Origin: Psilocybe cubensis
Lineage: Eukaryota
DNA: 64,000 bases
Assembly (NCBI GenBank): GCA_017499595.2
Contig: CM039000.1
Coordinates: forward strand, 1,550,001 to 1,614,000
Reading direction: 5' to 3'
Below, piece after piece: positions 44,413 through 52,626 of the stretch (positions within the stretch are counted from its first letter, which is position 1; each line of letters begins with the position of its first letter). The translations under genes and the position numbers were made by a program. Below the pieces are notes generated by a model. That model was not told where the DNA came from. It saw nothing but the letters and a program-made list of their open reading frames with translations, and did no database searches.

Positions 44413-45270
44413 ATGGCGCCTACCACCGATACCCCTGTGTTTGACGACAAAAAGGTCACTGTCATCTTTGTCCTCGGAGGGCCTGGTGCAGGTACGTGGC
44501 CCATCCTACAGTTTAACCCATCTAATCTTTTTGCACAGGCAAAGGAACTCAATGCGCCAAACTCGTCGAGGATTTCAACTTTTGCCATCTTTCAGGTTCG
44601 TCACCCAATCTCTCTTACAGGAAACGTACTCAACGAATCCTCTGATCAGCCGGCGACTTGCTGCGTGCAGAGCAGAACCGCGAGGGGTCGCAGTACGGCA
44701 AGCTCATCCAAACGTACATCCGCGAGGGCACGATCGTGCCGATGGAGATCACGATCAAGCTGCTGGAGAACGCGATGGGTGACGCGCTGGGCTCCAAGAC
44801 GGGCGAGGGGTGGGGCGAGGGCAGGGGCCGGTTCTTGATCGACGGGTTCCCGCGCAAGATGGACCAGGCGGTCAAGTTTGACGAGTCGGTGTGCCTGTCT
44901 TCGTTGGTGATCTTTTACTCTACGACGGAAGAGGTTTTGCTCGAACGTCTGACGGAGCGCGGCAAGACGAGCGGGCGTGAGGATGACAATATCGAGAGCA
45001 TCAAGAAACGCTTCCGTGGGTGATTACTTTCATTTTCCTCTGCTCTTCTCATCCGTTGTCTAGGCACGTACCAAAACGATACTATGCCGGTAATCGAATA
45101 CTACAGCGCGCAAGGCAAAGTGGCCGAGGTACGGCAATCTAATGAACGAAATACAAATCTCATAAATGTACATACAGATCGACAGCTCTCCATCTATCGA
45201 AGAGGTGTTTAAGAAATCGACGGGGGTGATCAAGGAAGTATTTGCCGGGAAATATCAGAAAGCTACATAG
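44413..45270 (+). CDS. URA6: UMP-CMP kinase (URA6/uck1)
   Basis: VIFVLGGPGAGKGTQC, HLSAGDLLRAEQ, FLIDGFPRKMDQA, RGKTSGREDDNIESIKKRF. Confidence 0.96.
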
Positions 45271-45287: not shown

Positions 45288-46487
45288 TCAGACAGGGCCA
45301 TAGACGGAAAACGTGTGTGGGGTTTGATCGATGATGCATGCAGCGCGTTCGCCAGGGGATATGCGGTGAACGGCGCCATCTGCGCAGACGAGATGGGCGT
45401 CTTCGTCTTGAGGGTCCTGTTGAAAGTGTTGAGTAATAAGAAGCGAGAGAGAGAGACAAAAATACAGACTGGGAACCACTCCCACCCGCCTGCCCTGAAA
45501 TACTCGATGACGACGGGACCGTCTCCGTTGACTTGGATCTCGCCAGTTGTTGTCTCATAAGTAAAGTTGACGTGTGTGCCGTTCTGATAGGCGGCGCCGA
45601 GGACTTGCCATACTTTTTCGACATACGTTTTCCTTGCGTCGTCGGAATCGTCATTGATCTGGGGATCGCGGAGGGGACGAAGGACGATAATGTCGCAGGT
45701 GGAGGGAGGGGGAGCTATGATGCGGGCGAGAGGGGATATCCTGAAATGGGGCTCGAGACGATCTACGTTGACGGTGGAGAGGAAATAGGCAAAGGGGCCA
45801 TCGAGCTCGAGGTCTGGGCTGGCATCGGGGTGGGGGATGAAGGCGGAGGACTTTGGGTCGTATATCTGTACGCGATCGCCGGGAACGGGGAGGATGCGTG
45901 CGCGTGCGCGATACCACTTTGTGCTGTTCTGCTCTGCGGCGATCTTGAATCTGGGAAAGATGAGATGGGGGGGTAGATTAGATGGATGATAGATACCTTT
46001 CGATACCGGGGTGAGAGCGCCTGAGAGACTCTGAGTGGTGGAGAATATTTGCATGGAGAGCGGTGGATACGACGACAGAGGCGAGAGAGGAGGTTGCAGC
46101 TATAGAGGCGGAGGCGAGCGAGATATGGACAGGGGCAGCGTTGGCGAGAAAGGCGCGGACAGACTGGAGCTTGTACTCGATCTTGTCTAGACCTGCGGGG
46201 GGAAAGAGAGAGGCGTAGAGGGCATTGGCGGTGCCGCAGGGGACGAGGACAAAGGAGATGTTTCTGTGAGGGAGAGCGTTGATGATCTCGTGGAGGGTGC
46301 CGTCGCCGGAAAGGAGGACGATGGTGAGGGGCGCATCTGGGAGATGGTGGATAAAGTTCTCTGCGTCGCCTTGGGCGGTGGTGGTGAAGACATGGTTGAT
46401 GGCGGGGAGGAGAGGGCGGAGATGGTGGTCGAAAAAGAAAGAGGCTTGCCTGTGACCTGAGGCCGGGTTGATGATGGCAACGAGCAT
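45288..46487 (-). CDS. Diacylglycerol/sphingosine kinase catalytic-domain family protein
   Basis: IINPASG, SGDGTLHEIIN, VPCGTANAL and C-terminal VCADG. Two introns. Confidence 0.88.
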
Positions 46488-48581
46488 GTTCAACTACGAC
46501 GACTATCTGTCTGCGTTTTTCTCAAGTCTCTTTCGGTTCTTCGCCTATGTTTTCCTGCAGATCGTATGTTTTATTTATTTCCATCTTCTGCACAGACCTC
46601 TCAGAGAACAACAGATTCCGACCCGGCTAGCCCAGCCCCTGCTGCCTGCGAGCTATCTGCTTTATCTTCTCTCCGCCTTTCCTCCCCAGCCGCAGCCCCC
46701 CACCAACTGGCATGAAAAGAACGCCCAGCCTATTCCACAGAGTCCCCAGCCAAGCGCCCTGGCCGTTCTCCTCTTTTCCCTCCCCACCCCCAGTCGCCTC
46801 CTCTTCTTGCTCAATTTCGCCATAAACACCCTCCTCCTCGCTGCCTCTGCCGACCTCGCCATCTCCCCCTTCTTTGACACTGCCCCAGACGTCGCATTCA
46901 CCCGCGTCGGTGCAGTCTATCCCGACAGTGTCAAGCTCCTCGTCCGCCACCCCTACCCTAACGACTCTCTTGCGGTCCTCTACCGCGAGCAGTCCAACTC
47001 GTCTCTGCCCTGGAAGCCTGGTCCTACCCTCAACCTCACAGAGCACTCTGACTGGGCTCAGACCGTCCGTCTCGCTGGTCTCTGGCCAAGCACCTCCTAC
47101 GAATGTCCGTCTCTCTCTTCTCTCTGCCGTATCTTATCTGATCCCCCCGTCCATAGACGTCATCGCCGACTCTAACCGCACCGCCCTCGACCGCCCCATC
47201 CCTTTCCGCACCTTCCCTGACCCCCGTCTCCACGCCCCCAGCTTCTTCCGCTTCCTCGCCACCTCTTGCATCACCCCCAACTTTCCCTACGCCGGCCCCT
47301 TTCACAGGCGCACCATCCCTGGCTTTGACCATCTCGCAGACTACCTCTATGCCGTCAACCACACCCAATCTCCCATCGAATTTCTACTCTTTCTCGGTGA
47401 CTTTATCTACGCCGATGTCCCTACCTACATTGGTGACGACCAGGAGGCCTATCGTCGTCTCTACCGCCGCAACTATGCCAGCCCAAGTTTCAGAAAGGTC
47501 TATGAACAACTTCGTCAGTCCCTCCCATTTTCTTTTCCTTTCCATCCACTAAACTCCCTCCAGCTATAATATTCGCTTACGACGACCACGAGGCAAGCTT
47601 GTTCCCTTGTAAAAATGCCCTTACTGACATATCCCAGTTCATCAACAACTATGGCGGCAACTCGCTCGACCTACCGCCCTTTGCCAACGCCTCTAATGCC
47701 TACCACATTTACGCCGGTTCCACAAACTACGACGCCCACGAAAACTACTACGACTTCCAGCACGGAGACATCGCCTTTTTCGTCATGGACACCAGACGCT
47801 ACCGCTCTCCTCCCAACACCACCGTCGAACCCAAAACAATGCTCGGGCCCACCCAGCTCGCCGCGCTCCATGCCTGGCTGCACCGCGTCAACACCACCCA
47901 CCCCGCCCCCTTCAAATTCATCGTCTCCTCTGTCCCCTTCACCTCCCTCTGGACCCACGACGCCCAGATCGACTCCTGGGCAGGCTACGCAGACGAAAAG
48001 GCCGCCCTGCTCGCCGCCTTCCACTCCGTCCCCAACCTCATCGTCATCAGCGGCGACCGCCACGAGTTTGGCGCCGTCGAGTTTGCGGTACGAGACGGCG
48101 ACCCTGGCTATGTCGTCAGAGAGTTCTCCACCAGCCCATTGAGCATGTTTTATATTCCTTTTGTACACACCATGAGGGAACGGAGTGAGGCGTTCTTTAC
48201 GCGTAACGTCACTGAAGGCGTCGAGGAAGTGCCGTATGAAAAGAGGATCGCGTACATCCCTACTGGGAACGTCAAGTGGTGCGTATCTGTCCTTTCGCCC
48301 TTTTTTCTAATAACACGCACCACAGGTCCGCGTTTGAAGTCGACACAAGAGACATTGACAAGCCAACTCTACGTCTAGAGACAGTCATCGACGGCAAACC
48401 AGCGTACCAGTGCGTTTAATGGCCCTTTTTCTCGTTCAACGCTGACATTTTCTTCAGCCTCGAAATTGTTGGCACCCCCGTCTACCCACCCGCCGCATTA
48501 TCAGGTCTCAGTTCCCTCGTCACAACAAACGTCAAAGGGATCTTCGACAGAATCGGACTCAGACCCTCCAAATGGTTCTAA
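46486..48581 (+). CDS. PhoD-like alkaline phosphatase family protein with N-terminal membrane anchor
   Basis: LFLGDFIYAD, YDDHE, FFVMDTRRYRS, MLGPTQL, DSWAGY, SGDRHEF, EFSTSPL. Hydrophobic N-terminus. Confidence 0.9.

Positions 48582-48655: not shown

Positions 48656-52626
<3,971 letters not shown>

Follow-up and report, generated by a model that had tools for sequence, protein, structure and literature searches.

A 64,000-nucleotide stretch of Psilocybe cubensis DNA, hereafter called the window, carries two divergent genes, one for a predicted lipid kinase on the minus strand and one for a predicted PhoD-like phosphatase on the plus strand, whose start codons lie within the same four bases, CATG (Table 1). 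Read directly from the window, the CATG stands within ...acgagCATGttcaac...; the two start codons overlap by two bases and the intergenic DNA between kinase and PhoD amounts to none. A first-pass annotation made from the sequence alone had placed both ATGs in this one CATG, and the placement is confirmed to the base. The CATG is plain from the sequence, homology and RNA-supported splicing establish the two start codons, and the opposing orientation of the genes is seen in the polarity of the introns removed in spliced contigs of two runs (X1 and X2), which read CT..AC for the kinase and GT..AG or, in one case, GC..AG for PhoD. Translation from both overlapping codons is probable, on the strength of N-terminal homology and the lack of other methionines. 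Taken as a whole, a head-to-head protein-coding pair that has been maintained by evolution and whose start codons hold two bases in common is probably real.

For the kinase, the minus frame reads TAG-L-N-M-LVAIINPASG, with the in-frame TAG (46496-46494) three codons upstream of the ATG as first described, and the initiator is the sole methionine of a spliced product of 366 amino acids. No alternative start is available, because of the upstream stop, the lack of any other methionine and the lack of any extra splice joint in the RNA contigs. Residues 2-96 match the Pfam family DAGK_cat (PF00781; E 4.2e-17, 62.3 bits against a cut-off of 23.6), and the full-length protein scores 60 bits to the same family. 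The nucleotide-binding motifs of DAGK_cat kinases, namely the N-terminal NPxxG loop and GDGT, are present: across 24 aligned relatives N7, P8 and G11 are nearly invariant and G61, D62, G63 and T64 are invariant, and in all 12 fetched orthologues a methionine start lies 5-15 residues ahead of the NP motif. The product matches at 99% a P. cubensis GenBank protein named ‘Sphingosine kinase 1’; its best solved relative is human SphK1, at an E-value of only 4e-7 over residues 3-199, all of its scores to the NCBIfam lipid-kinase models fall far under their cut-offs, and a Pfam search of the C-terminal open reading frame (ORF) returned no match. On its sequence features, the product is predicted to be a soluble DAGK_cat-type lipid kinase of 366 amino acids.

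The PhoD frame is open from 46456 and its only methionines lie at 46471, 46474 and 46486. From 46486 the ORF is uninterrupted for 600 amino acids across RNA-supported joints, which remove the first intron (46564-46614, its start at 46564 having been called correctly in the first-pass annotation) and six further introns, to a stop codon at 48579-48581. The next methionine of the spliced product falls within the catalytic domain, and the earlier claim that neither frame offers a downstream methionine before conserved sequence thus holds for PhoD as it does for the kinase. Seven of nine fetched PhoD orthologues open with a methionine, 10-18 residues, the motif S-S-L-F-R...Y-x-F-L-Q/R-I/V and then I-P-T-R-L-A, and the window yields exactly that N-terminus if exon 1 (46486-46563) joins 46615; only the GenBank models of P. 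cubensis and P. cyanescens are without the segment. The Pfam family PhoD (PF09423) is matched at 83.2 bits against a cut-off of 27 (E 2.5e-23, window ORF 47506-48378) and at 122 bits by the GenBank PhoD protein, whilst Pfam searches of 46486-47175 and 46826-47569 gave no match. The nearest solved relative is Bacillus subtilis PhoD (2yeq, E 2.8e-8), and the product is 100% matched to P. cubensis JR316_0003293 in GenBank over 74% of the query. It may be described as a putative 600-residue PhoD-like metallophosphatase whose N-terminal hydrophobic segments are probably membrane-spanning. The gene also holds a micro-exon of 29 nt (47564-47592), after which comes a GC..AG intron of 45 nt (47593-47637, GCAAGC...CCCAG); its joint in the RNA contigs, 47590/47636, is ambiguous by 2 bases, and splice-like ends result only with the GC..AG cut.

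Table 1. Coordinates in the window of the shared junction and of the two genes that diverge from it
Feature	Position	Strand	Remarks
Shared CATG	46485..46488	both	kinase ATG 46487-46485 (-), PhoD ATG 46486-46488 (+); offset +1
Kinase exon 1	45997..46487	-	DAGK_cat; opens MLVAIINPASG; no other Met; joint 45950/45997 in RNA contigs
Kinase intron 1	45951-45996 (46 nt)	-	GT..AG on minus strand
Kinase exon 2	45470..45950	-	RNA-contig joints
Kinase intron 2	45417-45469 (53 nt)	-	RNA contigs
Kinase exon 3, including stop codon	45288..45416	-	RNA-contig joint (cut +1)
In-frame TAG closing kinase frame	46494..46496	-	third codon upstream of kinase ATG
PhoD exon 1	46486..46563	+	MFNYDDYLSAFFSSLFRFFAYVFLQI; encodes conserved N-terminal hydrophobic segment
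PhoD intron 1	46564..46614 (51 nt)	+	GT..AG; removed in RNA contigs of X1 and X2
PhoD exon 2	46615..47104	+	opens IPTRLAQ...
PhoD exons 3-7	47157-47513, 47564-47592, 47638-48278, 48326-48409, 48458-48581 (with stop)	+	RNA-contig joints
In-frame upstream ATGs in PhoD frame	46471..46476 (46471, 46474)	+	antisense of kinase Ile-Ile codons
ATG of GenBank PhoD model	46547..46549	+	other frame; 10-aa ORF with RNA-supported intron

Runs X1 and X2 are not on record as RNA and were judged RNA-derived from their spliced joints alone, because introns are removed with splice-like ends: eight of the eight introns of both genes in X1, and seven of eight joints among the X2 pieces listed, including both kinase introns. 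Kinase and PhoD are both expressed and spliced in the same samples. One contig in each run (X1 record 1, 4752 nt; X2 record 3, 2539 nt) spans 45997-46563 unbroken through the CATG, and reads tiling over the junction in this manner are what overlapping 5’ ends would be expected to produce. The overlapping antisense transcripts foreseen in the first-pass annotation are therefore consistent with spliced but unstranded contigs that are unbroken in two runs; mutually exclusive expression, proposed alongside, finds no support, given the spliced forms of both genes in the same two runs, which leaves room for exclusivity at the level of single cells. An upstream exon for either gene was considered and rejected, there being no extra joint in the RNA contigs and orthologue N-termini that begin at the same place.

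Evidence that the layout is maintained comes from relatives. Metagenome contigs were scanned with the kinase alignment, giving 80 fungal loci; PhoD neighbours were found by tblastn with nine PhoD proteins, and both start codons were then placed by script. A divergent PhoD gene lies directly upstream of the kinase in 21 of the 80 loci (20 by tblastn, with L047 added as a short copy of L046). The spacing of the two ATGs in other Agaricales, to which the first-pass annotation had pointed as a check, is -2 to 28 nt in every one of these 21. The shared CATG itself, with offset +1, is found in nine (L003, L004, L005, L006, L009, L052, L053, L059 and L066, representing approximately six distinct sequences), and the recurrence of the same offset in 9 of 21 pair-carrying environmental loci takes it beyond chance. 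In L004 the ATG at the shared CATG is the sole methionine in the open PhoD frame shown. The other 12 have gaps of 8 nt (L008, L010), 15 nt (L046-L049, L069), 17 nt (L001), 23 nt (L062), 24 nt (L007) or 28 nt (L054, L071), the last two with a CATG that coincides with an in-frame upstream kinase methionine. One of the loci with the shared CATG, L003 (L003:230-330), has a kinase without 16 codons after Met-Ser, including the NPxxG loop, by comparison with L006; deletion, an alternative form or misassembly are possible causes.

Where the contig extends more than 1500 nt upstream of the kinase motif (46 loci), a PhoD neighbour is present in 13 loci and absent from 33. A quick maximum-likelihood tree of kinase N-terminal halves (~150 residues) places all 12 of the neighbour-bearing loci it includes in one clade (SH-aLRT 96) and all 10 neighbour-less loci outside it. 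The clade also holds P. cubensis, P. cyanescens, Galerina, Gymnopilus, Hebeloma, Pholiota, Flammula, Crassisporium, Panaeolus, Hypholoma and Crepidotus, and within it the shared CATG occurs in three subclades and a short gap in two, the forks between them being unsettled. Contig records of the named proteins fit linkage in Galerina, both Pholiota, Panaeolus, Hebeloma, Crepidotus, Flammula and Crassisporium, which is to be read as a hint only. As the short-distance head-to-head pair is kept across the loci of the clade, the layout is old and maintained. The pair was probably joined once, in the ancestor of a dark-spored agaric clade comprising Psilocybe, Galerina, Gymnopilus, Hebeloma, Pholiota, Crepidotus and relatives, and has been kept since then with -2 to 28 nt between start codons. 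In Lyophyllaceae (Tricholomella and Tephrocybe), kinase and PhoD share a contig, their locus tags differing by 16 and 5 (P0093/P0140 and P0041/P0162), and a loose linkage of the two may have preceded direct adjacency in the dark-spored clade.

Such a layout has consequences for how either gene can be expressed. A distance of -2 to 28 nt leaves no room between the starts for a promoter or a leader, and hence each 5’ leader has to run antisense through the partner's opening codons, just as each core promoter has to sit in the partner's first exon; the first-pass proposal that each promoter and 5’ untranslated region lies within the other's coding region is borne out as a consequence of geometry. 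With no intergenic DNA and with leaders antisense to the partner, the mRNAs would therefore overlap at their 5’ ends, provided that both ATGs are used and both mRNAs carry leaders. Ribosome scanning in a eukaryote depends on a capped leader, and at this locus such a leader can only consist of antisense coding sequence. Where transcription starts, how far the mRNAs overlap, co-regulation and lock-in are what we infer from there; leaders may measure some tens of bases and reach ~100 nt at most, and the mRNAs may overlap by ~30-160 nt. In five of the seven lineages with a gap, the CATG of PhoD creates an ATG on the kinase strand that lies 17-26 nt ahead of the kinase start and out of its frame, which argues for short kinase leaders or dampened kinase translation. 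Upstream ATGs in the window act as soft limits on leader length: beyond 63 nt a PhoD leader would take in a 12-codon upstream ORF (ATG 46422), and beyond 96 nt a kinase leader would take in an ATG at 46584. Depth in the bin 46487-46603 equals contig depth x 77/117 in X1 and X2, leaving no room for a PhoD contig that retains intron 1, and these figures weakly suggest a kinase leader that does not reach far into that intron. The RNA-like contig L001 runs through both genes across its 17-nt gap with the kinase introns and PhoD intron 2 gone and the 46-nt GC..AG first PhoD intron kept (L001:630-745, minus strand), which fits an antisense kinase leader of more than 140 nt or poor splicing of the GC intron. 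The first PhoD intron begins GCAAGT, and is of the GC..AG type, in L001, L054, L062 and L071. In several relatives (junctions L005, L006, L054, L062, L007 and L046) the PhoD N-terminus is a Tyr/His run (MYHHHH, MYYYY, MYYHY), which gives GTR repeats (GGTGGTGGTA...) on the kinase strand immediately ahead of the kinase ATG; no such run is present in PhoD orthologues from beyond the clade, and the repeats could be a kinase leader or promoter element written into PhoD codons.

The overlap must be weighed against other readings of the same junction. The deposited GenBank model (P0001, JR316_0003293, 586 aa, opening MFSCRSPLREQQ...) starts PhoD at ATG 46547 with a 32-nt intron at 46564-46595, such that the genes would not overlap; however, the 51-nt intron at 46564-46614 is the only one there in the RNA contigs of two runs, the 46564-46595 joint is absent from the listing, and with the RNA-supported intron ATG 46547 gives merely a 10-aa ORF. 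As the deposited model also lacks the N-terminal segment found in seven of nine orthologues, and would even then leave the start codons just 59 nt apart, it is barely credible: its 32-nt intron is already contradicted, and the corrected product of 600 aa regains the N-terminal hydrophobic segment. PhoD exon 1 is missing in 4 of 14 named models (P. cubensis, P. cyanescens, Hebeloma cylindrosporum and Agrocybe pediades), which is what a gene finder incapable of overlapping coding sequences would yield. A collapsed intergenic segment, an assembly artefact that would mimic the shared CATG, has nothing in its favour and next to no chance of being correct. It had been named at the outset as a way in which the layout could fail, and is excluded by two DNA contigs from a second study, X3 (52,415 nt, 33 substitutions against the window) and X4 (2,284 nt), both of which keep the introns, carry single nucleotide polymorphisms of their own and are colinear over the junction; the junction is also identical in the RNA contigs and the same in nine independent environmental loci. 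A further case is translation of PhoD from one of its upstream in-frame ATGs. The frame is open far enough, ATG 46474 is flanked by A at -3 and G at +4, and the same upstream methionine pair occurs in the Hebeloma-like loci L005, L006, L009 and L059. Against this, the two methionines are the antisense of the kinase Ile-Ile codons and look like by-products, because relatives with Val-Ile in the kinase (L004, L052) are without them; moreover, the 46486 start lies 12 residues before the S-S-L-F-R motif, where Crassisporium, Flammula and P. cf. subviscida each have 11. Initiation upstream is on balance unlikely and, as the first-pass annotation had recognised, would enlarge the overlap, to 14-17 nt in place of 2.

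Several points nonetheless tell against the shared start codons and what follows from them. PhoD might begin at 46471 or 46474, of which 46474 has the stronger context, in which case the overlap would grow and not vanish. In L052 and L053 a second methionine lies 12 nt further into the PhoD frame, and with its use the starts would stand 10 nt apart. On the RNA side there are unstranded contigs of a single study, in which a contig covering two genes is proof neither of a single transcript nor of a measured overlap, and two transcript ends could in principle be linked by low-level DNA or by read-through reads. The kinase tree is quick, with several open forks. Finally, a synonymous-site test of kinase codons 1-25 found no extra constraint relative to later codons or to neighbour-less lineages, and detected no embedded promoter element there: third-position entropy in these codons is 0.98 with a neighbour and 1.30 without, and a difference of ~0.3 is likewise found in codons 26-60 and 61-100, with 0.15 in codons 101-140. 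It is the similar difference in later codons that deprives the first 25 of any local promoter signal.

Granted the shared CATG, readings diverge on how far the transcripts overlap and on why the pair is kept. The same layout could operate with very short leaders, in which start sites within ~10-40 nt of the CATG would give an overlap of a few tens of bases and little interference. The out-of-frame ATG in the gap lineages would be an inhibitory burden on a longer kinase leader, the upstream ORF at 46422 and the ATG at 46584 would be gained by longer leaders in the window, the X1 and X2 depths leave no place for retained PhoD intron 1, and the RNA-like contig L002 starts 12 nt ahead of the kinase ATG. 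Yet contig ends are not transcript ends and gaps in contig cover prove nothing, unbroken contigs over the CATG require that both leaders together reach ~28 nt (the requirement follows from what we take to be k = 31 for the X1 and X2 contigs), and the retained intron of L001, with its other introns gone, would suit a kinase leader that exceeds 140 nt in the species concerned. Very short leaders are therefore a possibility to be taken seriously, if one on the less probable side.

A regulatory switch, which the first-pass annotation raised as a possibility while calling a shared substrate speculation, would have antisense overlap make kinase and phosphatase mutually exclusive, with both acting on one lipid phosphate. 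Throughout the whole clade a lipid kinase stays paired with a PhoD-type phosphatase of hydrophobic N-terminus, and head-to-head overlap is able to cause transcriptional interference in a human pair (PMC11890862). However, the spliced mRNAs of both genes occur in the same two RNA runs; 11 of the 13 divergent overlapping pairs examined in Ganoderma lucidum were positively correlated, according to passages of PMC5515960; no substrate is known for either protein; and the adjacency is not seen outside the clade (33 of 46 loci), from which it follows that the enzymes do not need linkage. Both the switch and the shared substrate are left without support, and the reading is very improbable. As spliced products of kinase and PhoD alike are found in the same samples, this unit would act like a bidirectional promoter buried in coding sequence and not like an either/or switch, and co-regulation of kinase and PhoD is plausible by analogy. 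In the human head-to-head coding pair, an RNA duplex stabilises both mRNAs and its loss leads to interference (PMC11890862). Neutral lock-in would be the most economical reason for conservation: because the promoters sit inside the partner gene there is no viable break between the genes, and a rearrangement that parted them would cost each gene its promoter. It accounts for conservation equally as well as co-regulation or a switch does. A bolder view is that the pair is an interlocked unit which arose once in dark-spored agarics, with core promoters in each other's first exons, one of them in the codons of the kinase ATP loop, where obligatory antisense 5’ overlap would couple the outputs of two enzymes acting on one lipid-phosphate pool, the lipid kinase and a membrane-anchored PhoD phosphoesterase, and which would be kept by function and not only by lock-in. 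We consider this decidedly doubtful; if true, such a unit would be a eukaryotic counterpart of bacterial divergent pairs that share start codons.

Head-to-head overlapping pairs and bidirectional promoters are well known. Classical bidirectional promoters resemble the P. cubensis pair in being divergent and conserved, and shared regulation is probable for the pair also; they sit, however, in an intergenic spacer of up to 1 kb, where the P. cubensis spacer is minus two. The human pair (PMC11890862) likewise has divergent coding genes, with transcripts that overlap at their 5’ ends, as those of the P. cubensis pair would, and promoters serving a shared open region, but its overlap lies in particular long isoforms and untranslated exons, whereas in P. 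cubensis the overlap takes in the very start codons, an isoform free of it is impossible and the arrangement is fixed clade-wide. RNA duplexes and R-loops are shown for the human pair. Closer to hand, in the same fungal class, divergent cis-natural antisense pairs of G. lucidum have the 5’-overlapping geometry predicted for the P. cubensis pair and, in passages of PMC5515960, form the commonest antisense class (614 pairs, 37.7%). These are sense and antisense transcripts defined by RNA-seq, and the passages of that study at hand contain no start-codon-sharing case and no cross-species conservation. A literature keyword search returned no report of this kinase/PhoD pair or of divergent nuclear start-codon sharing in fungi. 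The P. cubensis pair is an extreme, conserved variant of the head-to-head overlapping pairs of Agaricomycetes and not a new kind of system; what is new is that comparison with relatives supports the overlap and that the layout is fixed across a fungal clade.

Around the pair, the X1 RNA contig (4752 nt) extends ~850 nt beyond 45200 and ~800 nt beyond 48697, where it merges with convergent neighbours, a nucleotide-kinase-like ORF at ~44646-45023 (+) and an AAA-ATPase-like ORF at ~49226-49813 (-), both named by eye. Overlapping 3’ ends are seemingly common around this locus.

For annotation, the implication is direct: gene finders forbid overlapping coding sequences, and a layout of this kind forces them into wrong models, as in the GenBank PhoD model of P. 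cubensis, where a 32-nt intron was invented and the first hydrophobic segment lost. For biology, the pair is a natural example, conserved in evolution, of eukaryotic promoters and capped leaders that have to function within coding sequence on both strands, and it may be used to ask how start sites are chosen, how far head-on transcription interferes and whether such pairs become evolutionarily inseparable.

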